Below are positions 5,649-64,000 of a stretch of DNA of 64,000 bases, piece by piece (position 1 is the first letter of the stretch; each line of letters begins with the position of its first letter). Position numbers and translations under genes: made by a program. Under the pieces are notes generated by a model. That model worked only from the letters and a program-made list of their open reading frames with translations, was not told the origin of the DNA and searched no databases. This stretch comes from Macrostomum lignano (lineage: Eukaryota): assembly GCA_002269645.1 (NCBI GenBank), contig NIVC01002506.1, positions 1 through 64,000 on the forward strand. The letters are read 5' to 3'.

Positions 5649-5693
5649 GTTTAAGAGAAAGTTTAATAAACCTCATAATAGACCTCATAAAAA

Positions 5694-6092
5694 ATACGAC
5701 AAATAACTTTCTTGAAGATTTGGCTAACGAACTGGAATTCCCAAACTTTAGAGGAATATTTATGAGGGACACTCTGCCTGATTTTCCTCTAAGAAAGGAA
5801 TGCGGCATTATGAACTTTGACACCGCCGATAAGCCAGGATTTCATTGGGTTTGCTGGGTGATTGATCCCGATCGCAAGCACAAGTGTTATTACTTCGATA
5901 GCTATGGGACGGCAGTACCAGAAGAGCTAAGAAATTATATGAAGGGAAAAAAATAAGAAAATTTATCGCTCAGACTTTATTCTCCAAGGTCTTAACAGTG
6001 ATATTTGCGGTGAGCTGTGCATGACTGTTTTGTTTGCAATGACCAAAACACGAAAGACCTACAAGGAAATTATTCTTGGCTGTGTTTCATAA
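5694..6092 (+). pseudogene. Adenain-like cysteine protease (start codon altered, frameshift near 5950)
   Basis: Catalytic-type motifs GFHWVCW, YFDSYG and LQGLNSDICG. Confidence 0.9.
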
Positions 6093-6096
6093 AGGT

Positions 6097-6822
6097 TCAT
6101 TGTGCATTTCTCGTCGTCCTTCTTGCCGACTTTCTTTCCGCATAATGTTGAAAAACTTTCTCGAGTTCATTTTTCAGCTGACTCATGTCATCAGTACCGA
6201 CCATGTTCAAGTTCATTCGAACTGATTGTTCATAAAGATCCTGAATGGTTTTGAACTCATCCTCTGAAATGAACTTATCCTCGATTGCCCTTGAAATGTA
6301 CCCTATGATTGATGTGTGCACCCCTTTCTCTTTTACTTGCTTCTCCTGTAGCTGCTTTAGTTTTTTTCGCCTGTTTCGCGCTAATGCTCCAGTAATTGCT
6401 GAAATAAGTCCACATGCAGCACCCACAGAGCCGAGAGGGATTGCGATTGGGGCTGTGATGACTGGCAACGTTGAGACAGCTGCAGCAGATCCAGATAGAA
6501 CAGACACAGATCCTAGAATCATACTGCTGTAGTCGAAAAATTTACAGTGGCTGTCATAGCGCTTAATTTTCTTTGTGTTGTGAAAAATATTTTTTTCAAG
6601 ATCATCTCGCATTTTTTGAATCTCCACTAGTCGAAACTGCTGAGAGTTACAAGTAATGACGGGGTAAAGTCGGTCTGAATATTGAGGTGCATTCAGATTC
6701 GGTGCATTCAGGCTTGGTGCCAGGTTTTGTGTGTTCGAATTCGGTGCCATTGAGTTTGGTGCTGTCGGAATTTTAGGTTCAGCGTATTGAGACTGATCGT
6801 ATAGAGAATTTTGTTGGGCCAT
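6097..6822 (-). CDS. Polinton membrane-hairpin protein (241 aa) with PTAP and LYPVI motifs
   Basis: Intact ORF with a ~47-aa hydrophobic hairpin MILGSVSV...AITGAL flanked by charged helices. Homologues at 14681 and 33911. Confidence 0.85.
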   Translation of the reverse strand: MAQQNSLYDQSQYAEPKIPTAPNSMAPNSNTQNLAPSLNAPNLNAPQYSDRLYPVITCNSQQFRLVEIQKMRDDLEKNIFHNTKKIKRYDSHCKFFDYSSMILGSVSVLSGSAAAVSTLPVITAPIAIPLGSVGAACGLISAITGALARNRRKKLKQLQEKQVKEKGVHTSIIGYISRAIEDKFISEDEFKTIQDLYEQSVRMNLNMVGTDDMSQLKNELEKVFQHYAERKSARRTTRNAQ

Positions 6823-8741: not shown

Positions 8742-9122
8742 TTAGTCAAATTTAAAACCGCCTCCTTTCTTATATTCAGCTCTCATCTTTGCGTAGATGG
8801 CTGGATCGACACTATCTGCACTCGGTGCAAGGGGTTGAATATCTGGTATTGATTTCCGGGTTTCATTAACCGTATCCTTTATCTTTTTGGCTGCTGTGGC
8901 TACACTGCCAGCCGCTTCGGCAACGTTCTTGATGTTCTCTTTGTTCTCTCCAATGACCTTAAAAATCTTGGCCCCCTGAGCGATCAAATCGGCAAGGCCA
9001 TTCCCAGAGCGTTCTTTTCTTATATAGTGGCCTGCAGGGAAAAGTCCAGATCCGCGTTTAATGAGATTAAGTTCCTCTTTGTCATAGTATTTGTCAATGT
9101 CTTTTTCGAAAATAATTGGCAT
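8742..9122 (-). CDS. Small core-like protein with G-x-G motifs (pVI-like by inference)
   Basis: Probable start AAAAAGATG (MPIIF) at 9122. Motifs RGSGL, SGNGLADLI and C-terminal KKGGGFKFD. Homologous to 60728-61125. Confidence 0.7.
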   Translation of the reverse strand: MPIIFEKDIDKYYDKEELNLIKRGSGLFPAGHYIRKERSGNGLADLIAQGAKIFKVIGENKENIKNVAEAAGSVATAAKKIKDTVNETRKSIPDIQPLAPSADSVDPAIYAKMRAEYKKGGGFKFD

Positions 9123-9138
9123 CTTTTTAAATAGAAAT

Positions 9139-9852
9139 TTATTTTTTGTTGAACCGCGAAAGCAGAAGCTCTCTCGCCCTCTTATCGATGTATTTTCTCT
9201 CAAGCATTTTGTCTAGGATGTGAACAAACTCTTTTCTATTCTCATCTTTCATTCCGGTCTTTGCCGCTCCTAGAAGAACAGCTAACCGCTTGTAGAATTC
9301 AGGCATGCCTTTTCCGGAAGAGCTTGGAGGTGATCCGAATGATTGGTCAGAGGAGGAACTGTCATGTGGCGCTTGTCTTTGTTGAGGTGTGAATACTCTG
9401 TCATTGATTCGCTTCATTCGTTCTGGGGAGAGCCGCTCTAATTGTCGCCAAGTATCAGGGTTCGTATCTTTGTACTGGGAAATCTCATTTGGCCCTGCTT
9501 TTTCAAGCGCTTCTAGTACTTGTTCGGGTGTGATTTGTTGCTGTGGCGGTGGAGGTTGTTGTGGTTGTGTTTGTGTTTGTGGTTGCTGCTGTTGTGGTTG
9601 CTGTGGTTGTTGTGGTTGCTGCTGCTGTGGTTGTGGTTGTTGTCTTATGACCTCTTCTTGATCCGGCAAACCAAACCATTGTTGAAAGTATTTGTATTTT
9701 TTAAACCTGTTCAAGACAATCCCGTTTTCATGTAAAATTTTCAAAACACCGTCGTTCTTGAGCATATCTATATCCCTCTCTAAAGCGAAGGTAACAAGAT
9801 CTTTGTAATTTTCGAACTGCTTTTTAGACGTTTTCTCTAGATTTTTAGTCAT
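9139..9852 (-). CDS. Gln/Pro-rich Polinton protein. A disrupted 5' extension probably reaches 10326
   Basis: 237-aa ORF with a Q/P tract and C-terminal SGKG...RLAVLLG...ILDKM. The upstream same-strand reading (ATEFHKP, ORF 9901-10119) is broken by stops. Confidence 0.7.
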   Translation of the reverse strand: MTKNLEKTSKKQFENYKDLVTFALERDIDMLKNDGVLKILHENGIVLNRFKKYKYFQQWFGLPDQEEVIRQQPQPQQQQPQQPQQPQQQQPQTQTQPQQPPPPQQQITPEQVLEALEKAGPNEISQYKDTNPDTWRQLERLSPERMKRINDRVFTPQQRQAPHDSSSSDQSFGSPPSSSGKGMPEFYKRLAVLLGAAKTGMKDENRKEFVHILDKMLERKYIDKRARELLLSRFNKK

Positions 9853-10356
9853 GTAGTCGAGTAAACTTTGAGTGAAGGGGATTCGTTTAGTTTCTGCGCC
9901 TTAATTGATTAAAATATTTTCCTTTGTCACTTCAATGTTGTAATCCGCCGGTTCCCCGGTAATATTTTTTCGCCAGGCGCTAATTCCAAAAATATATTTT
10001 CCATCATCCAATACGGGGCCAAAAAAGTTATCCGTCACTTTCATCTGCACTGGTTGTCCTGGTTCCTGAGCCTGTGGTTGTCCCGGTGAAGATGGGATTT
10101 TACCCAATGTGTTTTGCAAGTGGCTCTCTTGAATATCATCAACTGCTTACTTCACAGTGTCGAGGTTTTTCTTCGCTTATGTGTATCCGGGTTTGTGAAA
10201 TTCGGTGGCTGCTTGGACAAAATCATTGTAGGATTGTTGCTCCTTATTTATTAGCCCGGTAACTCGTTTCTCTGCTTGTGCTAGCTTCTCCAATTCAGAT
10301 ATCTGCTGTGTACTTTTTCGCTTCATTTCTTATTTTATTTTATTTTTAGTTAAAAA

Positions 10357-11643
10357 ATGAACGACCCACTGACACCAGTTTTTTACAAAATGAACAAGCC
10401 TATTTTGAGTGATGATAGCACAATCAAAGCGACTCAGGTAAGAGTTCCCAGTCAGGAAAATCAGAATGAAACTAATCTTGGTCCTGGTCAAACACTGACA
10501 TTTACATACAATAGATGTTCATCTTTGGTTAGTGTGCACAGTCTTAAGAGCGGATTCCATATGACATTTCAATTCAAGACAAAGGGTGGTGCGGATGCGG
10601 CTCGTGCTAACGTTGACAAGCATGATGCGGATGTGGCTCTGATCAGCAACTTTTGGGCGTACATGTTCAAGGAGTTTAGTGTATCGAATGGGAGCACAGA
10701 GTTGGAGCGAATCGCCAACTTTGGAATTGTCTATGACGCTTATTTTTTGATTGAGAATCCTGATTTTATTCAATTGGGAAGTGGTGCGGGTTTTATTGCA
10801 GACGAAAAAGAAGGAGATATCAATGACAGTGGTTATAAAAATAGGAAGAAGAGATACAACTATGCATTGCAAGATGCTGATGATGCTGCTAAGAACCCGC
10901 AGTATCGGTCTGTTGATGTATTTGTACCATTGAGATTCATGAGTGGATTCTGTAATACATTTAATCGACTGACTAGTAACTTTAGCTACACCTTTAGGAT
11001 GACTAGAGATGATCGCAGTAGAGTGTTGTGGACTGGGGCGGACCACACAAGGATGGAGGTGAAGCTAACCGGAATCGAGCTGTATTTGGAAGTCATTGAG
11101 CCAAAGACTGCACTAAAAGCGGATTATCTCAAGGCAATAGAGAAGGACATTGATGTTGCATACACAGCCTACATGTGTCGAGATGAGCGAAACGAAACTA
11201 GAACAAACATCTGCATTAAAGAGGGATCATGCAGCAATCCAAGGTATATTATTATTAACATGAGAAACCAAAATAGCATTATACGCTACATGCATGGAGA
11301 CGTGCGGTCCATTCAGCATGAAATCAGTGATAATCTTTACCCTGCACTGCCACAAAATGGAGATTTCAGTCAGAACAAGATTAGCAAATTTTACAGCGAG
11401 TTGGTCGACTTGGCTGTGAAAGAGAACAATGGAATTGCTATCACTGCTCTTCAATATGGAACTCTATATCCGATGTTTGGCGCTGATGTGTCTGCCAGAC
11501 AAATGCCTACTGATAACAGCCCTGTGAATATCGTGACTAACATTGAGAGGACTGTCGCAACACCCGTGGACTTGTACATTATCTATGCATTTGAGAGGAA
11601 GGTGAAGCTTAACATGATCAACAATTCATCCAGTAAAGTTTAA
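10357..11643 (+). CDS. Major capsid protein (double jelly-roll type), intact, 428 aa
   Basis: Size, position next to penton, and Polinton-MCP-like motifs SDDSTIK, NFWAYMF..FSV, VPLRFMSGF, PRYIII, LYP and YPMFGADVS. Confidence 0.85.
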   Translation: MNDPLTPVFYKMNKPILSDDSTIKATQVRVPSQENQNETNLGPGQTLTFTYNRCSSLVSVHSLKSGFHMTFQFKTKGGADAARANVDKHDADVALISNFWAYMFKEFSVSNGSTELERIANFGIVYDAYFLIENPDFIQLGSGAGFIADEKEGDINDSGYKNRKKRYNYALQDADDAAKNPQYRSVDVFVPLRFMSGFCNTFNRLTSNFSYTFRMTRDDRSRVLWTGADHTRMEVKLTGIELYLEVIEPKTALKADYLKAIEKDIDVAYTAYMCRDERNETRTNICIKEGSCSNPRYIIINMRNQNSIIRYMHGDVRSIQHEISDNLYPALPQNGDFSQNKISKFYSELVDLAVKENNGIAITALQYGTLYPMFGADVSARQMPTDNSPVNIVTNIERTVATPVDLYIIYAFERKVKLNMINNSSSKV

Positions 11644-11663
11644 ATATTTTTTTAGAACAAAAA

Positions 11664-12527
11664 ATGGAAGCTATAGCCGAAAGACTAAACAACATTGTTT
11701 CACACTCCAAGGAGAGCATTCCTATTACAATAACTGGTCGAATTAATGACTCAAACGGGATGTTTGTTGAAAAATTAGAGCAGGCGATTCGCCTGGATCC
11801 AGGCGCTAATTACCATGTCTATCTTAACGACTTCACTGGTTGGTCAAACGTTCCTAATGTGATGGCAGCAAATAATAAGTTTTATTACAAATGGAAAGGT
11901 GCAGCAGCAGACCCTGTGGTATTCCATGTGAGCACGCAAAGTGTGGATACCTACAATTACTTTCTAGAAAACGTCTTTACTAAAAGAGGCCATTTTGAGA
12001 CACCTGATGCGAGTAAGCCAGATAAAAAACTGTTTCCTGTCAAACTAGCCTATGATCTCACTGTAATGAGAGTGGTCATGCAAGTTCACAAAGATGTGGA
12101 GGTTGAGTTTAAAGATAACACTTGGTATAGGGAATTAGGATTCGAGAAGAAAGTTTATAAGGCAGAATCCGCGGCGCGGACCGCCACTCAAGCGTCGGGG
12201 GCCGTTAGCATGGCCCGGGAAAGTGTACGCGGTTTGTTCTTAGCACCCAATATTGCAGACATTGTAAAGGGTTTGAATATTCAAATCAGAAGCAATCTCA
12301 GTCTTGATTGGGTATTTAAGGGAAAGCGAACTAATATTTTGTACAACATCTCCGACTTTGTTGCTGGAGGACAGATGCTGGTAGAGAAACCAAATCCAGT
12401 GAAAAGAGTTGTATTGAGTAATAAGGAGATTCACGAGATTGTGCTACAGTTTGAGACTGAAGATGGGGTGGGCGTTGATTTTAATGGGGAAGAGTTTGTA
12501 TTGACGTTGATCATTGAGAGAATGTAA
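11664..12527 (+). CDS. Minor capsid protein (penton), intact, 287 aa
   Basis: Motifs SNVPNV...NNKFYY, ELGF, VEKPNP and VDFNGEEFVLTL, directly downstream of MCP. Confidence 0.82.
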   Translation: MEAIAERLNNIVSHSKESIPITITGRINDSNGMFVEKLEQAIRLDPGANYHVYLNDFTGWSNVPNVMAANNKFYYKWKGAAADPVVFHVSTQSVDTYNYFLENVFTKRGHFETPDASKPDKKLFPVKLAYDLTVMRVVMQVHKDVEVEFKDNTWYRELGFEKKVYKAESAARTATQASGAVSMARESVRGLFLAPNIADIVKGLNIQIRSNLSLDWVFKGKRTNILYNISDFVAGGQMLVEKPNPVKRVVLSNKEIHEIVLQFETEDGVGVDFNGEEFVLTLIIERM

Positions 12528-14572: not shown

Positions 14573-14680
14573 GCAGATTCGAAGAGACCCGTTGCCGTCA
14601 CTGCAGACAAAGCAACCAAACGTAAAACAAATCTAACCACCAACAACTAGTTGTCGATTTTTTAAAAAAATTCCCTAAAA

Positions 14681-15346
14681 ATGGATGCTCAAAATTCTCT
14701 TTATGATCCGAACGCTCCCACAACACTCACAGCTCTCACAGCACCTAGTGCACCCCAATATGAGAAACAAAAACTCTACCCTGTCATTACTTGTAACTCT
14801 CAACAGTTTCGACTGGTGGAGATTCAAAAAATGCGCGATGATCTTGAAAAAAATATTTTCCACAACACAAAGAAAGTTAAGCGCTATGACAACCACTGTA
14901 AATTTTTCGACTACAGCAATATGATTCTAGGATCTGTGTCTGTTCTAACAGGTTCAGCAGCTGCAGCCTCAGTGTTGCCAGCCATCACAGTCCCAATTGC
15001 AATTCCACTTGGCTCAGTAGGTGCTGCATGTGGACTTATTTCAGCAATTACTGAAGCAGTAGCGCGAAACAGGCGAAAAAAACTAAAGCAGCTACAGGAG
15101 AAGCAAGTAAAAGAGAAAGGGGTGCACACTTCAATCATAGGGTACATTTTAAGGGCAATCGAGGATAAGTTCATTTCAGAGGATGAGTTCAAAACCATTC
15201 AGGATCTTTATGAACAATCAATTCGAATGAACTTGAACATGGTCGGTACTGATGACATGAGTCAGCTGAAAAATGAACTCGAGAAAGTTTTTCAACATTA
15301 TGCGGAAAGAAAGTCGGCAAGAAGGACAACGAGAAATGCACAATGA
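14681..15346 (+). CDS. Membrane-hairpin protein, copy 2 (221 aa) with PSAP and LYPVI
   Basis: Intact ORF homologous to 6097-6822. Confidence 0.85.
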   Translation: MDAQNSLYDPNAPTTLTALTAPSAPQYEKQKLYPVITCNSQQFRLVEIQKMRDDLEKNIFHNTKKVKRYDNHCKFFDYSNMILGSVSVLTGSAAAASVLPAITVPIAIPLGSVGAACGLISAITEAVARNRRKKLKQLQEKQVKEKGVHTSIIGYILRAIEDKFISEDEFKTIQDLYEQSIRMNLNMVGTDDMSQLKNELEKVFQHYAERKSARRTTRNAQ

Positions 15347-30637: not shown

Positions 30638-31138
30638 TCAAGCGTCTCTCTCTACCCCCATATCTTTCAAAAGTCTTCCCAATTCATTGTTAGGAGCGCA
30701 CAAAATAAACCCTGCTTCTGAGCCTCCGCCCTCTCTCCTCGTGCACCAGCCCTCTCTCCCCAAACAGCCGCCCTCGGCGCCAACCCCCAACCCCAGCTTT
30801 TTCTTACCAAAAATAACAGCTTTAACTAGCTTCCGAGCGATCGATTCCCTCCACCCGCTTGAAGCCCCTATATTGTCGAGTCTCTTAAGCATTTCTTTGT
30901 CCCAGCGATTCTTCTCCTCAGGAAAATCTCTATATTTAACGTCGTGCCACATGCAGACAGAGTCTAGCTCGTTCACAGGCTCATGCCCAGGATTTGGGTT
31001 GTCGTTACCATCCAGCTGTATTTCAAGTGGATTCAAAGGCCCGCAATATTTGTACCCGGGAACTGTCCAGCCTTTGTTTGGATGAGGAAGCTTTTCTATC
31101 AGTCCATGTAAATCTAACTTACCACCAGAGCGTTGCAA
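30638..31138 (-). CDS. Parvovirus-VP1-like phospholipase A2 protein (ATG changed to TTG here)
   Basis: WTVPGYKYCGPLN (Ca-loop-like) and DSVCMWHDVKY (catalytic HD..Y), followed by G-x-G motifs. Confidence 0.85.
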   Translation of the reverse strand: MQRSGGKLDLHGLIEKLPHPNKGWTVPGYKYCGPLNPLEIQLDGNDNPNPGHEPVNELDSVCMWHDVKYRDFPEEKNRWDKEMLKRLDNIGASSGWRESIARKLVKAVIFGKKKLGLGVGAEGGCLGREGWCTRREGGGSEAGFILCAPNNELGRLLKDMGVERDA

Positions 31139-31168
31139 TATTTTATTTTAAATTTTATTTTTAAAAAA

Positions 31169-34557: not shown

Positions 34558-34947
34558 AACACAGGTAAGAATAATTTCCTTGTAGGTCTCTCGTGTTTTG
34601 GTCATTGCATACAAAACAGTCATGCACAGCTCACATCAAATATCACTGCTAAGACCTTGGAGAATAAGTCTGAGCGATAATTTTTTTTCCTTTATATAAT
34701 TTCTTAGCTCTTCTGGTACTGCCGTCCCATAGCTATCGAAGTATTGATAATAACACTTGTGCTTGCGATCGGGATCAATCACCCAGCAAACCCAATGAGA
34801 TCCTGGCTTATCGGTGGTGTCGAAGTTCATGATGCCGCATTCTTTTCTCGGAGGAAAATCAGGCAGAGTGTCGCTCATAAAAATTCCTCTAAAGTTTGGG
34901 ATTTCCAGTTCGTTAGCCAAATCTTCGAGAAAGTTATTTGTCGTCAT
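34552..34947 (-). pseudogene. Adenain-like protease copy 3 (stop at the catalytic-Cys position)
   Basis: GSHWVCW, YFDSYG, LQGLSSDI then TGA. Confidence 0.88.
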
Positions 34948-41000: not shown

Positions 41001-41031
41001 CGTCAAACAACTCAACTCTCTGGTTCATTGG

Positions 41032-41059
41032 TTAGGGTTAGGGTTAGGGTTAGGGTTAG
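41032..41059 (+). repeat. Interstitial (TTAGGG)4 TTAG
   Basis: Read directly. Confidence 0.95.
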
Positions 41060-50421: not shown

Positions 50422-50817
50422 TTACAAGAACAGAGGCAACACATGTGCTGCAAAGCGTCGTAGGCAAAAATACGCGCGCCGAAATTCATTCCTTCGACGA
50501 GACCCACAACCAAGAATACGCGTTAAAAAGAATCGAAGGCTACCACCACCAGTCAGTTTGAAATACAAATAAAACAACACCCAAATACCACAATGACCAG
50601 TCCGAGGATCCTGAATAGCAAATCGGCTGTAGGACCAATTTTGAAAATCCCCACATTCTCGCCCCAACCACCGTCTAATATTTTCCGGTGGATTTAAACC
50701 AAGCGAATCAAAATATTTCCCGACTCTTCGTCCACGGCGCCGCCTAACCCGCCTACTACTCACCCAAACTGCAACACAATGCCTACCAGGAAGATTCGAA
50801 GTGTTTGTATTCGCCAC
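50422..50817 (-). pseudogene. Adenain-like protease remnant of a second Polinton type (family B)
   Basis: NTNTSNLPGRHCVA, YFDSLG and IQDPRTGHCG; clearly diverged from the family A protease. Confidence 0.82.
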
Positions 50818-50829
50818 AAAGAAATAGTC

Positions 50830-51770
50830 TTTATCATCTAAAGGTAATTGTTCACAAAGGCTACCAGAAGCAACCTCGGCACACCACTCGGGAACAAATT
50901 CTCGTGCGTATGACTGGACGATCCGCGCGGAATAGTAAACGTGCCAAGACTCAATCTACGTTGCGGATACAAAGCATTGTGGCTTTTCAAACCATGCGCA
51001 TGCGCTCCAGTAATCTGGGGGAGGGTCCATAAAACGAACACGCAGCTCCGCTTGAAGGATTGATATAGTATAGTCCTTCAATTCTACATCTCTCCGATTG
51101 CCGAACCACTCAGAACGAACTTACTTTTCGCCGGCAGGAACTTGAGTCGTAGTGGAGTTTTTGAGAGCATATACAGCGGCTGCCGAAACAAATCGAGGAA
51201 CAGAGGTCCAGACACAGTGCACTGTTTATTGTCCTCAATCAGAGCCTTCCGCTTCACCCGTCCACTATTTCCCGTAGTACCATCCATTTGTCCAGCAGTG
51301 TCCTTGTAAAAGCCCCAAGGAGCCAAAGCAGTCTTCTGTGCAACACTTCCATACTCCAGCAGAGTCAGTAGCATTGCCTTGTACGGATACATAAAAGTTC
51401 CACCTTCCACCACCGTGTCCCCAATATTGAATTGCACATCCTCGAAAAGACTCGCAATCGCCAAATTGATGAGGCACACGTTGTTCTTTGCCGCATCAAT
51501 AGCCGCTCCGTCAGCCTCACTCACCCGAAACTTGACACCCAAGACCGTTTCGAGAAGGTCAATATACAAATCACCTGCAGGCACTATTTTCAAACTCTAT
51601 TGGCGAACCCTGACTGATGCCATGTTGCGGTTGTATTGTGGTTTAACGACTATCCACCACACTAAACTGAACAGGCGTCGAATCGAACAGCGACAATTCA
51701 CTCTTGAGCGCAGCGATATCCGGTCCCAGCAGCTGATTCAGTATTAACGATTGACTAACCAAAAAGACTG
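50830..51770 (-). pseudogene. Major capsid protein remnant, family B (stops, frameshifts, deletions)
   Basis: KSELSLF...SPIEF, YIDL, YPYKA...LLEYG, FYKDTAG and ENLF.G.P: a different MCP type from 10357-11643. Confidence 0.85.
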
Positions 51771-52700: not shown

Positions 52701-55700
52701 AGAAGCGTCATGTAAAAATCATAGTAGCGTCATGTAAAAAATCGTAGAAGCGTCATATAAAAAATTATAGAAGCGTCATATAAAAATCATAGATGCGTCA
52801 TTTAAAAAATCATAGAAGCATCATATAAAAATCATAGATGCGTCATTTAAAAAATCATAGAAGCATCATGTAAACAATCATAGAAGCGTCATTTAAAAAA
52901 ATCATAGAAGCGTCATATAAAAATCATAGATGCGTCATTTAAAAAATCATGGAAGCGTCATGTAAACAATCATAGAAGCGTCATGTGAAAATCATAGAAG
53001 CGTCACGTAAAGAATCATAGAAGCGTCATGTAAACAATCATAGAAGCGTCATGTAAACAATCATAGAAGCGTCATGTAAAAAATCATAGAAGCGTCATGT
53101 AAACAATTATAGAAGCGTCATGTAAAAAAATCATAGAAGCGTCATGTAAACAATCATAGAAGCGTCATGTAAACAATCATAGAAGCGTCATGTAAACAAT
53201 CATAGAAGCGTCATGTAAAAAATCGTAGAAGCGTCATTTAAAAAATCATAGAAGCGTCATGCAAAAATCATAGATGCGTCATTTAAAAAATCATGGAAGC
53301 GTCATGTAAACAATCATAGAAGCGTCATGTAAAAAATCATAGAAGCGTCATATAAAAATCATAGAAGCGTCATGTAAAAATCATAGAAGCGTCATATAAA
53401 AAATCATAGAAGCGTCATGTAAAAATCATAGAAGCGTCATGTAAACAACCATAGAAGCGTCATGTAAAAAATCATAGAAGAGTCATGTAAACAATCATAG
53501 AAGCGTCATGTAAGCAATCATAGAAGCGTCATGTAAACAATCATAGAAGCGTCATGTAAACAATCATAGAAGCGTCATGTAAGCAATCATAAAAGCATCA
53601 TGTAAACAATCATAGAAGCGTCATGTAAACAATCACAGAAGCGTCATGAAAAAATCATAGAAGCGTCATGTAAACAATCATAGAAGCGTCATGTAAACAA
53701 TCATAGAAGCATCATGTAAAAAAATCATAGTAGCGTCATGTAAACAATCATAGAAGCGTCATGTAAAGAATCATAGAAGCGTCATGTAAAAAAATCGTAG
53801 AAGCGTCATATAAAAAATCATAGAAGCATCATGTAAACAATCATAGAAGCGTCATTTAAAAAAATCATAGAAGCGTCATATAAAAATCATAGATGCGTCA
53901 TTTAAAAAATCATAGAAGCGTCATGTGAAAATCATAGAAGCGTCACGTAAAGAATCATAGAAGCGTCATGTAAACAATCATAGAAGCGTCATGTAAACAA
54001 TCATAGAAGCGTCATGTAAACAATCATAGAAGCGTCATGTAAAAAATCATAGAAGCGTCATGTAAACAATCATAGAAGCGTCATGTAAAAAAATCGTAGA
54101 AGCGTCATAATAACAATCATAGAAGCGTCATGTAAACAATCATAGAAGCGTCAAGGAAACAATCATAGAAGCGTCATATAAAAAAATCATAAAAGCGTCA
54201 TGTAAAAAATCATAGAAGCGTCATGTAAAAAATCATAGAAGCGTCATGTAAAAAATCATAGAAGCGTCATATAAAAATCATAGAAGCGTCATGTAAACAA
54301 TCATAGAAGCGTCATGTAAACAATCATAGAAGCGTCATGCAAAAATCATAGAAGCGTCATTAAAAAATCATAGAAGCGTCATATAAAAATCATAGAAGCG
54401 TCATGTAAACAATCCTAGAAGCGTCATGTAAACAATCATAGAAGCGTCATGTAAACAATCATAGAAGCGTCATGTAAACAATCATAGAAGCGTCATGTAA
54501 ACAATCATAGAAGCGTCATGTAAACAATCGTAGAAGTGTCATGTAAACAATCATAGAAGCGTCATGTAAACAATCATAGAAGCGTCATGTTAACAATCAT
54601 AGAAGCGTCATGTAAACAATCATAGAAGCGTCATGTTAACAATCATAGAAGCGTCATGTAAACAATCGTAGAAGTGTCATGTAAAAAATCATAGAAGCGT
54701 CATGTAAACAATCATAGAAGCGTCATGTAAACAATCATAGAAGCGTCATGTAAAAAATCATAGAAGCGTCATATAAAAATCATAGAAGCGTCATGTAAAT
54801 AATCATAGAAGCGTCATGTAAACAATCATAAAAGCGTCATTAAAAAAATCAGAGAAGCGTCATGTAAAAAAATCATAGAAGCGTCATGTAAACAATCATA
54901 GAAGCGTCATGTAAAAAATCATAGAAGCGTCATATAAAAATCATAAAAGCGTCATGTAAACAATCATAGAAGCGTCATATAAAAATCATAGAAGCGTCAT
55001 GTAAACAATCATAGAAGCGTCATGTAAACAATCATAGAAGCGTCATATAAAAATCATAGAAGCGTCATGTAAACAATCATAGAAGCGTCATATAAAAATC
55101 ATAGAAGCGTCATGTAAAAAATCATAGAAGCGTCATGTAAAGATCATAGAAGCGTCATGTAAAAAATCATAGAAGCGTCATGTAAAAAATCATAGAAGCG
55201 TCATATAAAAATCATAGAAGCGTCATGTAAACAATCATAGAAGCGTCATGTAAAAAATCATAGAAGCGTCATGTAAAAAATCATAGAAGCGTCATATAAA
55301 AATCATAGAAGCGTCATGTAAACAATCATAGAAGCGTCATGTTAACAATCATAGAAGCGTCATGTAAACAATCATAGAAGCGTCATGTAAACAATCGTAG
55401 AAGTGTCATGTAAAAAATCATAGAAGCGTCATGTAAACAATCATAGAAGCGTCATGTTAACAATCATAGAAGCGTCATGTAAACAATCATAGAAGCGTCA
55501 TGTTAACAATCATAGAAGCGTCATGTAAACAATCGTAGAAGTGTCATGTAAAAAATCATAGAAGCGTCATGTTAACAATCATAGAAGCGTCATGTAAACA
55601 ATCATAGAAGCGTCATGTAAACAATCATAGAAGCGTCATGCAAAAATCATAGAAGCGTCATTTAAAAAATCATAGAAGCGTCATATAAAAATCATAGAAG

Positions 55701-58700
55701 CGTCATGTAAACAATCATAGAAGCGTCATGTTAACAATCATAGAAGCGTCATGTAAACAATCATAGAAGCGTCATGTTAACAATCATAGAAGCGTCATGT
55801 AAACAATCGTAGAAGTGTCATGTAAAAAATCATAGAAGCGTCATGTTAACAATCATAGAAGCGTCATGTAAACAATCATAGAAGCGTCATGTAAACAATC
55901 ATAGAAGCGTCATGTAAACAATCATAGAAGCGTCATGTAAAAAATCATAGAAGCGTCATGTAAACAATCATAGAAGCGTCATGTAAACAATCATAGAAGC
56001 GTCATATAAAAATCATAGAAGCGTCATGTAAACAATCATAGAAGCGTCATATAAAAATCATAGAAGCGTCATGTAAAAAATCATAGAAGCGTCATGTAAA
56101 AAATCATAGAAGCGTCATGTAAAAAATCATAGAAGCGTCATGTAAAAATCATAGAAGCGTCATATAAAAATCATAGAAGCGTCATGTAAACAATCATAGA
56201 AGCGTCATGTAAAAAATCATAGAAGCGTCATGTAAAAAATCATAGAAGCGTCATATAAAAATCATAGAAGCGTCATGTAAACAATCATAGAAGCGTCATG
56301 TAACAATCATAGAAGCGTCATGTAAACAATCATAGAAGCGTCATGTAAACAATCGTAGAAGTCATGTAAAAAATCATAGAAGCGTCATGTAAACAATCAT
56401 AGAAGCGTCATGTTAACAATCATAGAAGCGTCATGTAAACAATCATAGAAGCGTCATGTAACAATCATAGAAGCGTCATGTAAACAATCATAGAAGCGTC
56501 ATGTAAAAAATCATAGAAGCGTCATGTAACAATCATAGAAGCGTCATGTAAAAATCATAGAAGCGTCATGTAAAAATCATAGAAGCGTCATATAAAAATC
56601 ATAGAAGCGTCATGTAAAAATCATAGAAGCGTCATGTAAACAATCATAGAAGCGTCATTAAAAAATCATAGAAGCGTCATGTAAAAAATCATAGAAGCGT
56701 CATGTAAAAAATCATAGAAGCGTCATATAAAAATCATAGAAGCGTCATGTAAAAAATCATAGAAGCGTCATAAAAAATCATAGAAGCGTCATGTAAACAA
56801 TCATAGAAGCGTCATATAAAAATCATAGAAGCGTCATGTAAACAATCATTGAAGCGTCATGTAAAAAATCATAGAAGCGTCATGTAAAAATCATAGAAGC
56901 GTCATGTAAAAATCATAGAAGCGTCATGTAAAAATCATAGAAGCGTCATATAAAAATCATAGAAGCGTCATGTAAACAATCATAGAAGCGTCATGTAAAA
57001 AATCATAGAAGCGTCATGTAAAAAATCATAGAAGCGTCATAATAAAATCATAGAAGCGTCATGTAAACAATCATAGAAGCGTCATGTAAAAATCATAGAA
57101 GCGTCATATAAAAAATCATAGAAGCGTCATGTAAAAATCATAGAAGCGTCATGTAAAAAATCATAGAAGCGTCATGTAAAAAATCATAGAAGCGTCATAT
57201 AAAAATCATAGAAGCGTCATGTAAACAATCATAGAAGCGTCATGTAAACAATCATAGAAGCGTCATGCAAAAATCATAGAAGCGTCATTAAAAAATCATA
57301 GAAGCGTCATATAAAAATCATAGAAGCGTCATGTAAACAATCATAGAAGCGTCATGTAAACAATCATAGAAGCGTCATGTAAACAATCATAGAAGCGTCA
57401 TGTAAACAATCATAGAAGCGTCATGTAAACAATCATAGAAGCGTCATGTAAACAATCATAGAAGCGTCATGTAAACAATCATAGAAGCGTCATGTAAACA
57501 ATCATAGAAGCGTCATGTAAAATCATAGAAGCGTCATGTAAACAATCATAGAAGCGTCATGTAACAATCATAGAAGCGTCATGTAAACAATCATAGAAGC
57601 GTCATGTAAAAAATCATAGAAGCGTCATGTAAACAATCATAGAAGCGTCATGTAAACAATCATAGAAGCGTCATGTAAAAATCATAGAAGCGTCATATAA
57701 AAATCATAGAAGCGTCATGTAAACAATCATAGAAGCGTCATGTAAACAATCATAGAAGCGTCATGTAAAAATCATAGAAGCGTCATGTAAACAATCATAG
57801 AAGCGTCATGTAAAAAATCATAGAAGCGTCATATAAAAATCATAGAAGCGTCATGTAAACAATCATAGAAGCGTCATATAAAAATCATAGAAGCGTCATG
57901 TAAACAATCATAGAAGCGTCATGTAAACAATCATAGAAGCGTCATATAAAAATCATAGAAGCGTCATGTAAAAATCATAGAAGCGTCATATAAAAATCAT
58001 AGAAGCGTCATGTAAAAAATCATAGAAGCGTCATGTAAAGATCATAGAAGCGTCATGTAAAAAATCATAGAAGCGTCATGTAAAAATCATAGAAGCGTCA
58101 TGTAAAAAATCATAGAAGCGTCATGTAAACAATCATAGAAGCGTCATTAAAAATCATAGAAGCGTCATGTAAACAATCATAGAAGCGTCATGTAAAAAAT
58201 CATAGAAGCGTCATGTAAAAAATCATAGAAGCGTCATATAAAAATCATAGAAGCGTCATGTAAACAATCATAGAAGCGTCATGTAAAAATCATAGAAGCG
58301 TCATGTAAACAATCATAGAAGCGTCATGTAAACAATCATAGAAGCGTCATGTAAAAATCATAGAAGCGTCATGTAAACAATCATAGAAGCGTCATGTAAA
58401 AATCATAGAAGCGTCATGTAAACAATCATAGAAGCGTCATGTAACAATCATAGAAGCGTCATGTAAAAAATCATAGAAGCGTCATGTAAAAATCATAGAA
58501 GCGTCATGTAAACAATCATAGAAGCGTCATGTAAACAATCATAGAAGCGTCATGTAAACAATCATAGAAGCGTCATGTAAAAATCATAGAAGCGTCATGT
58601 AAAAAATCATAGAAGCGTCATGTAAAAATCATAGAAGCGTCATGTAAACAATCATAGAAGCGTCATGTTAAAATCATAGAAGCGTCATGTAAACAATCAT

Positions 58701-60000
58701 AGAAGCGTCATGTTAACAATCATAGAAGCGTCATGTAAACAATCATAGAAGCGTCATGTAAAAAATCATAGAAGCGTCATGTAACAATCATAGAAGCGTC
58801 ATGTAAAAATCATAGAAGCGTCATGTAAACAATCATAGAAGCGTCATGTAAACAATCATAGAAGCGTCATGTAAAAATCATAGAAGCGTCATGTAAACAA
58901 TCATAGAAGCGTCATGTAAACAATCATAGAAGCGTCATATAAAAATCATAGAAGCGTCATGTAAACAATCATAGAAGCGTCATATAAAATCATAGAAGCG
59001 TCATGTAAAAATCATAGAAGCGTCATGTAAAATCATAGAAGCGTCATGTAAAAAATCATAGAAGCGTCATGTAAAAAATCATAGAAGCGTCATTAAAAAT
59101 CATAGAAGCGTCATGTAAACAATCATAGAAGCGTCATGTAAAAAATCATAGAAGCGTCATGTAAAAATCATAGAAGCCATGTAAAAAATCATAGAAGCGT
59201 CATGTAAAAATCATAGAAGCGTCATGTAACAATCATAGAAGCGTCATGTAAACAATCATAGAAGCGTCATGTAAACAATCATAGAAGCGTCATAGAAGCG
59301 TCATGTAACAATCATAGAAGCGTCATGTAAACAATCATAGAAGCGTCATGTAAAATCATAGAAGCGTCATGTAAACAATCATAGAAGCGTCATGTAAAAA
59401 TCATAGAAGCGTCATGTAAACAATCATAGAAGCGTCATGTAAAAATCATAGAAGCGTCATGTAAACAATCATAGAAGCGTCATGTAAAAATCATAGAAGC
59501 GTCATGTAAAAATCATAGAAGCGTCATGTAAAAATCATAGAAGCGTCATGTAAACAATCATAGAAGCGTCATGTAAAAAAAAAATCATAGAAGCGTCATG
59601 TAAAAATCATAGAAGCGTCATGTAAAAATCATAGAAGCGTCATGTAAAAATCATAGAAGCGTCATAAAAAATCATAGAAGCGTCATGTAAAAATCATAGA
59701 AGCGTCATGTAAACAATCATAGAAGCGTCATGTAAACAATCATAGAAGCGTCATGTAAACAATCATAGAAGCGTCATGTAAAAATCATAGAAGCGTCATA
59801 TAAAATCATAAAGCGTCATGTAAAAAATCATAGAAGCGTCATGTAAAGATCATAGAAGCGTCATGTAAAAATCATAGAAGCGTCATGTAAAAAATCATAG
59901 AAGCGTCATATAAAAATCATAGAAGCGTCATGTAAACAATCATAGAAGCGTCATGTAAAAAATCATAGAAGCGTCATGTAAACAATCATAGAAGCGTCAT
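52701..60000 (+). repeat. Satellite array, 22-24-bp unit, consensus ATCATAGAAGCGTCATGTAAACA (about 315-320 copies by length), runs into gap
   Basis: Invariant core ATCATAGAAGCGTCAT plus an A-rich variable linker. Confidence 0.98.
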
Positions 60001-60076: not shown

Positions 60077-60137
60077 CTATGAGAGTAATTTTTTGTTGAG
60101 TGTTACTATTACCATGACTCAGTTTAAACTCTTTTGT

Positions 60138-60546
60138 GACCCTTCGCGCCTGCGGCGCGGCGGCGGGTTATAGAGTGTTGGGGAGAGTTGGAACTGTTAG
60201 AAGAGTTGGGGAGTGTTAGAAGTGTTAGTAGTATATACGATACAAAATACCCAGCAAACCATTCTCACCATTGCAAACAATTTAACCCTTTATCAGTGTG
60301 AAATGGCCTGTTTCCCTTCATTTTCGCTCGTCTTCACTTCGCTCAACTCGCTTCGCTCATCCTCGCTTCATTTCGGTCAAACAGGCCATTTCACACTTAC
60401 AACGATTAATTCTTTTTGAATGGTGAGAACACGCTCTCGTCGTTCGCTTTGGTTTGCTGGGTATTTTGTATCGTCAACGCTTCCAACTCTCTCCAACACA
60501 CACAAACTTTCTAGAACCGTCGCACGCGCCGCAGGCGCGAAGGGTC
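60138..60546. repeat. ~410-bp interrupted foldback (four perfect stems)
   Basis: 60138-60159/60525-60546, 60237-60261/60450-60474, 60262-60272/60419-60429, 60295-60313/60379-60397. Confidence 0.92.
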
Positions 60547-60727
60547 GGAAAGAATAGAAGCTATTTATAGTCAGTTCACCTACCCACCCAACATTCCATT
60601 TAGACCGGATTTTGGACCAAATTTTTGAAAACGAAAACCAAAACGATAGTCTAGTTTTGTTTGGTCTGGAATCTGGTCTAAATGGAATGCAGACAATCTT
60701 TTTCTGTTACTAAAAATAGAACAAAAA

Positions 60728-61125
60728 ATGACACACGTTACACATATGCAAAATCTGAATGAATTGCAGGTAGGAGACCCAGTTGAATACCGAGGTGAGG
60801 GCTTTTTGATGTGGTTGGAACAGCAGCAAATTTTGTTAAAGACAATATGGGGCTTATAGGCCAAGCTGGCTCTGCAGCAGGCTCTATAACAAATGCTGTA
60901 AAAGGAGGAATTGAAGCAGCTAGAGCGGCAGAAGAACTAAAGAAATTGAGAGATTTTAACGACACCCTCTCACAAATAAAATGCAATAAAAGATTTAAAG
61001 CTGGCACAAGCCGCACAACCAACAGAAACCCCACGAAAAGCGCACCAATAAGTAATAAAGATATTCAGGATTTTAATAAAATGTTAAATACTATTAAAGG
61101 TGGAAAAGGATTAAAGAAATTTTAA
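60728..61125 (+). pseudogene. Core-like G-x-G protein homologous to 8742-9122 (1-nt shift near 60805)
   Basis: RGEGF(F)DVVGTAANFVKDNM...AGSAAGSITNAV...KGGKGLKKF. Confidence 0.65.
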
Positions 61126-61135
61126 CAATATAAAA

Positions 61136-62125
61136 ATGGGCTCAGTTAATGATGATGAAAACCGGTTATATTTTATAGGAGAAATTGTAGATACTTTAGA
61201 TCTGATGATAATAAGCAACCCACACAATGTTAAAAAGATTGGATCGATTAGGTAAAAAGTTTGACTACGACATCGATACATTTAAACTCGCAGCAAAATA
61301 TGCACAAGAAGGAAGGCCAATATCCTTTAAGAATCGCGGCAGAAATTATAGGTTGACAGACTCCGATGTGAAATTTTTAATGGAGACTCACACTAAAAAG
61401 GACGGTGGATTACTACCCATTCTACCGCTTCTTTTAGGACTTGGCGCAGCTGGAGCAGTCGGTTTAGCCGGAAAAAGAATTCATGATAATGTAAAACAGC
61501 TAGGAGAGTTAAGAGCGAAACAGGGGGGAATCTTGCCCCTTGCAGCTTTGCTCCCAATAATTTTTGCAGGAATTGGAGCAGCTGGAGAGAGTTGCTGGCG
61601 GAGCAGCTGGAATTAAAGCAGTAAATGACAAAAAAGCTGCGACGAAAAAGCTAAAAGAGAGGCCGAATTTCAAAGACAGCAAATAACGCAGGACGCACAA
61701 TTTAAACAAAACTTATCGATACAATTAATAGTAGTTCAGCAACAGCTGAGCAAAAAAGAAATGCAGAAGCTAGGTTATCAGCTGGAAAAGGGTTAATACT
61801 AAAAGGATCAAATCATGGCAATGGTTTACTTTTACAAGGAACAACCCAAGGAAGTGGAGTTGTCGCAGATAAACTACATGAATTTGGTCAAACTTTAGAA
61901 AAAACGGGTGAGAAAGCTAAAGGATTTTTTGACAATATTGGGGCTAATTTTAGGCCAGCAGTTCAGAAGATTTTTACTAAATTAGGAAAAGATTTTAACA
62001 TCATTGAAAAACATGATGGAAGCGGATTATATCTCGAAATGCGACCAAAAGCAGGTTCAGGAATTTTCTTAAATTCAAACGTTATGGGCAATGGATTGCT
62101 GTTACCAAAAGCAGATCTCGAATAG
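61136..62125 (+). pseudogene. Polyprotein-like core precursor with two pX-like modules and six G-x-G motifs (frameshifted)
   Basis: KDGGLLPILPLL and KQGGILPLAALLPII, then AGKGLIL, HGNGLLL, QGSGVV, DGSGLYL, AGSGIFL and MGNGLLL to TAG at 62123-62125. Confidence 0.65.
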
Positions 62126-62206: not shown

Positions 62207-64000
62207 ATGGAACAAAGATTGACCCCAGATCAGATTCGACAACTTCTTGCAAATGAGCGCCAACAGTTCAATCGATTACAAAGACAGATTGAACAAATTG
62301 AACAGCGCCAAAGACAACAACGCCGCCAAAGAGCAAGAGAAAGACAGAGAGAAAGGCAGAGAGAAAGAGAAATACAAGACCAACAAATAAATGCATTAGC
62401 AAATAATATAAGGGCAGAATATGAAATGAAGCGATTAATAGAAAAGGCTGAATATGAAAAAAGAATAGCAGAATTAGAAAAAAACCAAAAGAAACCCACA
62501 CGTCGGAAACCTCGGAATAAATCGGATGAAAAACCATTAGATGAGTTTATTAGGGTTTATCGATTTGAACCAATGCAGAATGTCCTAGATTTTATTGAAA
62601 CCCAGCTTTCAAACGGATATGCTGTTGAAATTACTAATGCGAGGGTACAATATTTTTATAATAAAACCGGGGATGATCGTGAAGAGATTAATCAATACTT
62701 AGCAACATTTTATAATATAAGCCAATTTCAAGCTTGGTTTAAGCATTTGGTAGAAAATTACGACATGAATTTAAGTGTGTTTTCTGGAAGACTTAAAATG
62801 ACTCCAAACGAAATTACACTTAAACACGAAAGGTCAAAGCAGGGTATGGGAACAAATGTCATGTGTGAAATTGTAGAGTATAAAGATGAGTACTGTTACA
62901 TACCTAGTGATGGAAATTGTTTCTACAAGTGTGTTCAGTTTATTTATGGTGATAAAGCCCCATCCAAAGACGAATATGGTGCTTGGTTGTTCGACTCAAG
63001 AACCCAAAGAGGTTTAATGACAAATTCAAGAATTGGAAGATTCAATGAATATTTTAATCTTAATATAGGGCTGTACAACACCAAAAATCGTGGCATTGAA
63101 CCAAAGTCTCAAAGAGGGATTCACCACGATTGGTTATTAATAAATTATTTCCACACACCAGATTACCACATTGGGCATTATTGTCTTATATCAAATAAAC
63201 AACGAGGAATCGCCCTCGAACGGATAAAAGACAATTATAAAGTTGTATATAAAAACCCAACGCTCGAAAATGTTAAGGAGCTAAAAATGTTCAACACACC
63301 CACAAATCCCAATAAATCAAACGTATATATATTTGATTTTGAAACATATTTAAATTATAATCAACAAGCATGTCCGTATGCGGTTGGTCTTTTAAACTAT
63401 AACGACTTTTCTAATAAGTGTAATGAAACCCCAGAGGAAATAAAGAAACTAACTAAGATCTTGATATCAGATCGCGGTTGTGATTTTCAAACAGATGGAG
63501 ATAAGGTTGACCGTGCCGAAGGTTCGCAACCAAAGGTTGATTGTGTTAGAAAAATGTTTAAATACCTTGGTACAGTTAGGTCAAAGGGGATTGTTTTGAT
63601 CGCGCATAACTCATCCCGCTTCGATTCATACATACCACTATTTTGTAATATAAAACCAATTAAAATTCTCAAAACCCCAAGAGGAATATTATCAATAACT
63701 TTTGTAAACGATTACGCGTCAAAAGAGGTTAGTGCATTTATAAACAAAGATAAGAAGAAGAATCATAAGGATTCGAAACAAACCATTACGATGCTTTGTT
63801 CATATCAACACGCATCAATGAGTTTAAAAAAGTTTTGCTCATCAATGACAATTAGAGAGGATTTGCGAAAGACCTCAATGGTTCACGACATTACCGAACA
63901 CGACTATTTAGAGCGCATGGACGAATGGTATGAATATTTACAATTTGATCTTATTTCTTTATGCGCCTGTATTCATAAGTATAATGAAATAGCATATGAA
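62207..64000 (+). CDS. polB: pPolB N-terminal part with OTU-like domain and exonuclease. At least 598 codons, open to window edge, absent from ORF track
   Basis: Translated by hand with no stop. R/Q/E-rich N-terminus, IPSDGNCF...GHY, Exo I YIFDFET, Exo II AHNSSRFD, Exo III YLQFD. Confidence 0.85.
   Translation, partial: MEQRLTPDQIRQLLANERQQFNRLQRQIEQIEQRQRQQRRQRARERQRERQREREIQDQQINALANNIRAEYEMKRLIEKAEYEKRIAELEKNQKKPTRRKPRNKSDEKPLDEFIRVYRFEPMQNVLDFIETQLSNGYAVEITNARVQYFYNKTGDDREEINQYLATFYNISQFQAWFKHLVENYDMNLSVFSGRLKMTPNEITLKHERSKQGMGTNVMCEIVEYKDEYCYIPSDGNCFYKCVQFIYGDKAPSKDEYGAWLFDSRTQRGLMTNSRIGRFNEYFNLNIGLYNTKNRGIEPKSQRGIHHDWLLINYFHTPDYHIGHYCLISNKQRGIALERIKDNYKVVYKNPTLENVKELKMFNTPTNPNKSNVYIFDFETYLNYNQQACPYAVGLLNYNDFSNKCNETPEEIKKLTKILISDRGCDFQTDGDKVDRAEGSQPKVDCVRKMFKYLGTVRSKGIVLIAHNSSRFDSYIPLFCNIKPIKILKTPRGILSITFVNDYASKEVSAFINKDKKKNHKDSKQTITMLCSYQHASMSLKKFCSSMTIREDLRKTSMVHDITEHDYLERMDEWYEYLQFDLISLCACIHKYNEIAYE

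Follow-up and report, generated by a model that had tools for sequence, protein, structure and literature searches.

The window analysed here, a stretch of eukaryotic DNA of 64,000 nt, probably from an animal, ends in about 4 kb of a Polinton that is unrelated to the first Polinton of the window. This second element consists of a palindrome, a small gene, a pX-like gene and a polymerase gene represented by its first 597 codons (Table 1). It runs off the window at position 64000, and its own protease and capsid genes lie outside. The ATG of the pX-like gene is preceded by a run of A residues, as are the ATGs at 60729 and 62207. The polymerase gave no direct Pfam or PHROG match as a partial sequence; its best ESM Atlas match scored 0.91, in a cluster that is 58% PF03175. 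Exonuclease motifs and a vOTU-like Cys/His pair were recognised by eye, and a vOTU domain has been described for Polinton polymerases (PMC11161782). The polymerase is not closely related to the one encoded by the first Polinton. Its Polinton-type cluster, along with the mostly Preplasmiviricota composition of the Atlas cluster nearest to the pX-like family, bears out the Polinton context proposed in the first-pass annotation.

The small gene upstream of the pX-like gene matches the family profile described below weakly (11.7 bits) and gave no family match otherwise; it probably encodes a second small virion protein. Its comparison with the ORF at 8742-9212 of the window gave no clear relationship. 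The palindrome, of which the window contains no second copy, could represent a subterminal structure, an origin structure or an inserted element. A second, small hairpin is located upstream of the Polinton genes at 60592-60689.

Table 1 Features of the second Polinton and of its pX-like gene (positions are those of the 64,000-nt window).
Feature	Coordinates	Strand	Remarks
Imperfect palindrome of about 420 nt, nested arms, upstream of the genes	60133..60551	.	Single-strand fold z = -16.6
Small gene, apparently broken once; Gly/Ala-rich stretch and helix; G-x-G-L motif at 61102 near its end	60729..61125	+	
Putative two-module pX-like (Macc-class) virion precursor gene of a Polinton, four frame changes	61136..62125	+	Intact relatives of 265-319 aa cover the full span
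Piece 1	61145-61246	+	Model 4-37, 8.6 bits
Piece 2	61221-61586	+	Model 29-150, 164 bits
Piece 3	61591-61677	+	Model 152-181, 9.2 bits
Piece 4	61632-61694	+	Model 167-187, 7.5 bits
Piece 5	61835-62110	+	Model 188-277, 127 bits
N-terminal domain, about 90 aa, over two pieces	61136..61400	+	P0005 model: three helices, beta hairpin, helix
Extra pX-like module 1: K-x-G-G, then predicted 40-residue peptide with hydrophobic start and basic end (net +3)	61404..61523	+	
pX-like module 2, counterpart of the single module of the family, then helix; broken inside	61524..61677	+	
First G-x-G-hydrophobic triplet (61784, 61817, 61850)	61784..61861	+	
Helical segment with beta hairpin at its end	61862..62017	+	P0005 model: H201-222, H228-241, E242-246, E253-257
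C-terminal tail with three G-x-G-hydrophobic units, 12 and 11 residues apart	62018..62125	+	
Polinton-type protein-primed DNA polymerase B, 5' part, open to the window edge	62207..64000	+	ESM Atlas

The remainder of the window is rich in mobile DNA. Several broken and rearranged copies of another Polinton family, interrupted by non-LTR retrotransposons, occupy positions 1-38500. Their genes encode a polymerase, an ATPase, an integrase, a capsid protein (10354-11643), a probable penton (11637-12527), a PLA2 (30638-31147) and adenain-like proteases (5684-5944 and 34681-34941). A broken single-module pX-like gene (about 1250-1600) is located just upstream of the polymerase gene of this first Polinton. 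A two-helix hydrophobic protein, encoded at 6097-6822 and 14666-15346, weakly matches the two-module profile (E about 0.005) and may be a distant GasderminX-type Macc protein. The remnant of a third element (50422-51596) features an adenain-like protease ORF and a second ORF which, judged by a motif, may encode a capsid protein. Five copies of a TTAGGG-type telomere-like repeat are found at 41030-41059. A 7.3-kb satellite array of 22-23-nt units (45-nt higher-order unit) spans 52701-60000 and is separated from the second Polinton by a gap of 76 bases. Of the 24 sequencing runs listed, 20, which come from seven studies and carry one organism label, contain 0.47-0.71 of the sampled words; this distribution fits an inherited element. 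One of these studies may be the source of the assembly. No RNA run containing sampled words was among those listed.

The region 61136-62125 had been read as one gene interrupted by frameshifts, and comparison with relatives supports that reading. Searches with the longest window piece identified intact relatives of 265-319 aa that share 36-57% identity with it; P0016 was added by profile search. A profile of 278 positions built from seven intact relatives (P0001-P0006 and P0016) was searched against 2812 six-frame pieces of the window and of four metagenome loci (L001-L004). Five window pieces, in changing frames, were placed along this profile in order, and we therefore regard them as parts of a single, broken gene; the three short ones are weak when taken singly (E 0.11-0.35), and derive their weight from order and position. 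In tblastn searches, P0001 and the window are 53-54% identical across two long blocks. The four frame changes occur near 61205-61240, 61586-61591, 61630-61675 and 61700-61715. Runs of 4-6 A coincide with three of the breaks and a GA repeat with the fourth, the frequency of such runs being uncontrolled. In contrast, the frame of the neighbouring polymerase is open across 597 codons. The breaks may reflect decay in the DNA or assembly errors. On the evidence of the ordered alignment, 61136-62125 is a real, broken gene of a widespread family of putative Polinton virion precursors; being broken, the window copy matters only as a pointer to that family.

Two GG-[LI]LP hydrophobic modules are found in the window copy at 61404 and 61524, 40 codons apart, as the first-pass annotation had indicated. 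When compared to the single-module profile A5, module 2 scores 36.7 bits and module 1 16.3 bits. By sequence likeness, it is thus module 2 that corresponds to the single module of the family, while module 1 is additional. Between the two GG motifs lies a peptide of 38-43 residues, with a net charge of +2 to +4 and a best 19-residue hydropathy of 1.8-2.1, both in the window piece and in all seven intact relatives. G-x-G-hydrophobic motifs are found at 61784, 61817, 61850, 62018, 62054 and 62087. Their number is as first reported, yet they do not form a regular series, since the spacings of 11, 11, 56, 12 and 11 residues define two triplets. The first two motifs are extra in the window copy: they sit in an 18-residue stretch that P0001, the closest relative, does not have, and their likeness to the C-terminal units is weak (2.6 bits). 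The third, at 61850, is conserved throughout the family.

A structure model of P0005 (mean pLDDT 71.6, pTM 0.44) features a confident N-terminal domain (block pLDDT 84-96 at residues 11-90), separate helices, and a Gly-rich part and a tail of low confidence. Fold searches with the model revealed no match at E<=0.001 in BFVD and PDB, and ESM Atlas structures gave TM<=0.26 by query. A model made of separate parts, with no fold match, would fit a precursor rather than one globular fold.

Profile searches yielded 178 and 660 matches, the best 120 of each being listed. The 192 proteins analysed were reduced to 43 representatives below 60% identity; P0007, a repeat protein of 1310 aa, was judged a false match and left out of all counts. 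Most members are 150-320 aa long and share a common plan. The first half consists of an N-terminal domain, a K-x-G-G motif, a hydrophobic Leu/Pro and then Gly/Ala-rich segment, and a helix; in the second half, a conserved G-x-G is followed by a helical spacer and then by short G-x-G units that form the tail. One module is present in 31 representatives, two in 7, three in 3, four in 1 and none in 1, so that 11 of the 43 feature two to four modules; at least three G-x-G-hydrophobic motifs are found in 36 of the 43, the patterns for modules and motifs having been chosen after the sequences were seen and missing variant modules, for instance that of P0012. A second, shorter GG-hydrophobic stretch in L001 and L004 was left out of these counts. 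The two-module group and the single-module family match each other in profile-profile comparison at 99.9%. In the two-module group, module 1 is always located 38-43 residues upstream of module 2. The N-termini of the three- and four-module proteins differ from those of the two-module group, and we infer that modules have probably multiplied more than once.

Genes of the family were also examined in their genomic context. Scans of viral contigs and a first scan of metagenome contigs revealed no relative, and a second metagenome scan identified four loci encoding distant relatives; none of the viral and metagenome contigs scanned carries a close two-module relative together with its protease. 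A PHROG search with six proteins returned nothing useful. L002 and L003 are overlapping metagenome contigs that represent one near-identical element. Here, a single-module relative is located between the genes of an A32 ATPase and a protease, and the start of the protease gene overlaps the stop of the relative (1585-2163 and 2160-2774, respectively, in L003). The best PDB match of this protease is adenain (E=0.072), the match to ASFV S273R being weaker. Further genes of the element encode a probable penton, an rve integrase, a separate PLA2 and the end of a polymerase. In L004, the relative follows what appears, by eye, to be the end of a capsid gene. P0116 reads from the family protein on into a protease, and is probably a broken junction of the same precursor-protease gene pair. 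Relatives are thus found within morphogenesis modules. The C-terminal segment of the L003 ORF at 2160-2774 resembles the PP1-binding region of ASFV DP71L/GADD34-like proteins (Pfam E=0.005; PDB E=0.11-0.37). This end of the protease ORF may represent a recruiter of eIF2-alpha phosphatase, either fused to the protease or adjoining it.

The pX-like hydrophobic domain follows GG, is present twice in the window gene and is not terminal. Matches to adenovirus pX are short, hydrophobic and mostly below the Pfam gathering cut-off, which is 25 bits for Adeno_PX (PF05829). The window piece reaches 13.4 bits (E=0.076) and the two-module relatives 22.7 bits at most. The cut-off is passed by more distant relatives, namely by the L003 gene (25.2 bits) and, among 12 proteins scanned, by P0010 alone (27.1 bits). 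At E<=0.05, Adeno_PX is matched by 21 of 44 family members, among which it is the most frequent Pfam family. A PDB chain named PX, 9lr9_E, is the top match of both family profiles (E=0.57 and 0.019), with an alignment limited to the hydrophobic piece. Judging from a reference title, 9LR9 may be from bovine adenovirus 3; no paper describing it was found in the literature. The window piece had no match when searched directly against PDB sequences, and a profile search aimed at named adenovirus pX proteins revealed only family members among the best 120 of 660 matches. The nearest ESM Atlas cluster is 73% viral and 20% Adeno_PX. Viral fusion peptides are also weakly matched by the family profile (E 0.55-0.86); these matches may reflect composition only, and part of the pX match could therefore have the same origin. 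In adenoviruses, it is the C-terminal region of pX that different genera have conserved, with a cleavage site as its boundary (PMC12517501). By sequence, the family is outside the pX family as strictly defined.

Processing by the Polinton protease, with the cleavage of pX by adenain after GG as the model, had been proposed for the gene. Adenain requires M, I or L at P4 (PMC7998265), and the consensus tested was (M/I/L)-X-G-G|X or (M/I/L)-X-G-X|G. Among the 43 representatives, P4 is Lys at 90% of the GG sites (n=58) and at 35% of the GX|G sites (n=157), while M, I or L occurs at 0/58 and 6/157 sites, respectively, against a background of 21%; since the sites share ancestry and are not independent events, these figures are descriptive and not statistical proof. 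Allowing N or Q as well adds nothing at GG sites (0/58) and raises the count to 22/157 at GX|G sites. In the window copy, M, I or L is found at 0/2 GG and 0/6 GX|G sites. The adenain consensus thus does not apply. Lys is the commonest P4 residue at both types of sites (K+R background 14%), a pattern suggestive of a single enzyme. Serial GG|X and GX|G motifs, as found in the window copy and in the family, correspond to the motif defined for the mavirus protease. This protease cleaves the tail of the capsid protein at four serial sites, of the types GG|X and GY|G, and 10 of 12 virophage capsid proteins have conserved motifs of this kind (PMC6048507). As far as the literature search went, no substrate or specificity has been described for a Polinton protease.

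The G-x-G-hydrophobic motif was also counted in 21 ORFs from the window and L002/L003, a set that represents few elements and leaves out the pX-like gene. Small Polinton ORFs contain nine motifs, in 7 of 10 ORFs (2.4 expected, P=0.001), and three capsid ORFs contain three; none is present in eight enzyme ORFs (1.6 expected, P=0.19), a lack that is not significant alone, with ORF classes assigned after the sequences were seen. Several ORFs of two virophage-like contigs carry the motif as well. The presence of the motif in several small or virion ORFs fits a protease signature common to several virion proteins, and the motif is a possible sequence tag for such proteins. P0194, a G-x-G-rich protein found on virophage-like contigs with a protease query, was considered as a relative, but homology is unsupported (hhalign 12%). 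Unrelated small ORFs in which the motif was noticed map to 8742-9212, 9139-9900 and 30638-31147 of the window. The same motif was seen in L002 (2-181 and 968-1894), L003 (3802-4335), L005 (540-2258 and 7549-8925) and L006 (7659-8894).

These data were weighed against other explanations of the locus. That it harbours separate, unrelated ORFs or a chance pattern is hardly credible. Three pieces of the five do score low by themselves (7.5-9.2 bits), but each of seven intact relatives covers the whole region, in order, with one ORF; the P0001 tblastn blocks, together with the ordered profile placement, rule separate ORFs out. Similarly, the six motifs of the last 139-aa piece compare with a mean of 0.6 in shuffled sequences, and 0 of 20000 shuffles reached six. 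The stronger form of the earlier view, in which the gene is a true pX/mu equivalent that encodes a DNA-condensing core precursor, is improbable. It draws on the alignment of the module to pX residues 48-77, directly after GG, and on a Lys+Arg content of 14-17% in the intact relatives. Moreover, the same conserved domain, the C-terminal one, is all that is left of pre-mu in ichtadenovirus (PMC12517501), and the Arg-rich part is therefore not universal. However, adenovirus pX is cut into three, of which the middle part, basic and 19 residues long, is mature mu (PMC7998265). In the seven intact relatives, no Arg-rich mu peptide is found between two sites, nor any strongly basic short fragment; Arg content is 2.6-5.3%, and the predicted fragments have net charges of -3 to +4, except for one N-terminal fragment at +10. 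Because the Arg-rich DNA-binding peptide is missing, the description of the modules as adenovirus pX-like holds for the C-terminal hydrophobic part of pX and does not extend to pX/mu equivalence. The gene could, finally, encode a membrane protein that is not part of the virion and serves, for example, in egress, its likeness to pX stemming from hydrophobic Gly/Ala composition. Each module does contain a 19-residue stretch with a hydropathy of 1.8-2.2, within the transmembrane range, and most Adeno_PX scores are below the cut-off. Against such a protein, which we consider very improbable, stand the GG directly before the module in both families (both glycines are invariant in 44/44 aligned relatives), the rank of Adeno_PX among Pfam matches and the overlap with the protease gene in L002/L003.

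A different question is how much of the protein is cleaved. If only the GG before the modules were cut, the G-x-G units might be beta-strand docking motifs that stay attached and bind the inner capsid or a partner. Conservation continues past the glycines of the G-x-G sites (P2' is hydrophobic by definition, P3' is Y/F in 50% and P4' Leu in 53%), one unit forms a hairpin strand in the P0005 model, and the number of units varies from 0 to 6 among representatives, all of which would suit docking. Furthermore, two additional GXG sites of mavirus are uncut in vitro (PMC6048507), and the motif is therefore not in itself a cut. Yet GX|G is a demonstrated site of both adenain (PMC7998265) and the mavirus protease (PMC6048507), Lys prevails at P4 in both types of sites, and the motif recurs in unrelated small ORFs; on these grounds docking motifs are unlikely.

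We favour the interpretation that 61136-62125 is a damaged minor virion precursor gene of an adintovirus-type Polinton, of the pX-like/Macc class, whose product is processed by the protease (probability about 0.7). The observed gene identity, architecture, family, context of relatives and motif statistics would then be joined by packaging and cleavage, which we infer. The intact precursor would be packaged inside the capsid, and the adenain-like protease of the element would cut it after K-x-G-G and within G-x|G. The expected products are the N-terminal domain of about 90 aa, two peptides with a hydrophobic, Gly/Ala-rich start (the part shared with pX), helical spacers and several tail peptides of 8-12 residues; in intact relatives, predicted tail fragments are mostly 7-17 residues long. 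The two-module form would have arisen by internal duplication. Entry peptides have such a layout: a hydrophobic start, set free when the precursor is cut, and then a helix. By this analogy, we tentatively assign to the hydrophobic peptides, at somewhat below even odds, a role in membrane penetration at entry, or else in lining the inner capsid, rather than in DNA condensation.

A broader reading may be drawn from the same data, although we regard it as speculative. The hydrophobic peptide at the end of pX would be an ancestral, portable entry peptide of Polinton-type viruses, freed by a maturation protease that prefers Lys at P4 and hydrophobic residues after the cut, and its dose would have been raised by tandem duplication (2-4 copies) in several lineages. 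The tail series of 11-12 residues, clipped by the same enzyme, could be a protease cofactor in the manner of the 11-residue pVIc of adenoviruses (PMC7998265); the tail units are similar to pVIc in length, and the cofactor idea is offered as a lead. If the broader reading were true, one small precursor and the neighbouring protease would define virion maturation in Polintons, and the C-terminal fragment of pX would be given a function. The family provides a ready protease substrate, with hundreds of natural relatives, a gene that is often adjacent to the protease gene and a predicted site (K-x-G-G and then a hydrophobic residue) that is sharp and unlike that of adenain.

Proteins with pX-like domains are already known in related elements. 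Such domains are found at the C-termini of adintovirus PLA2X and GasderminX, and the likeness of pX to melittin has been noted (Starrett et al. 2021, PMC8502044); the Macc class was named by Buck et al. (2024, PMC11071296). The window gene has a pX-like domain and belongs to a Polinton-type element, as is the case for adintovirus Macc-class genes. As in PLA2X and GasderminX, the domain is hydrophobic and may have a membrane-active role in the capsid core. In contrast to these proteins, the pX-like module is central rather than C-terminal, is doubled and is followed by a G-x-G tail. Pfam searches of 44 members revealed no PLA2 or gasdermin domain, the published gasdermin likeness having come from HHpred, and in L003 the PLA2 gene is separate from the pX-like gene. 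The available text of the PLA2X, GasderminX and Macc accounts (PMC8502044, PMC11071296) describes neither tandem modules nor cleavage sites, and three module words do not occur in the accessible part of the PMC8502044 supplement. Likewise, the available text of PMC8097293 and 10.64898/2026.10.13.758929 contains nothing on a pX-like Polinton family. No stand-alone multi-module family, tandem pX-like modules or P4-Lys site was found in the literature searched, although sequence supplements to the published work may already contain such proteins. The novelty of the earlier idea is hence partial. The doubled module and the site signature are new, while pX-like domains in adintoviruses and in LO6 had been published, and serial G-x-G tails turn out to be the rule in the family.

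The pX-like LO6 protein of adomaviruses has adenain-type motifs and was found as low-mass bands in virions, which suggest cleavage (Welch et al., bioRxiv 10.1101/341131). The Polinton family resembles LO6 in having a pX-like hydrophobic segment and predicted protease sites; adomaviruses differ in being circular fish viruses, and the LO6 motifs are (MIL)XGXG or L(LR)GG rather than K-x-GG. By analogy, the precursor probably resembles LO6 and adenovirus pX in maturation cleavage. Serial GG|X and GX|G motifs are shared with the C-terminal domain of the virophage major capsid protein, from which MVP, a clan CE protease, releases C-terminal peptides of 12-14 residues in mavirus (Born et al. 2018, PMC6048507). 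The mavirus tail is part of the capsid protein, whereas here the tail is carried by a separate small precursor and its cleavage is predicted from motifs. Adenovirus pX (PF05829) features the same GG followed by a hydrophobic Leu/Pro and Gly/Ala-rich segment, but is 80 aa long (176 aa in aviadenoviruses) and has the module at its C-terminus. The human adenovirus protein contains the Arg-rich mu peptide and M, I or L at P4; the Polinton family has no mu and features Lys at P4, and its proteins have an N-terminal domain and a tail in addition. The family links the most conserved and least understood part of adenovirus pX to Polintons.
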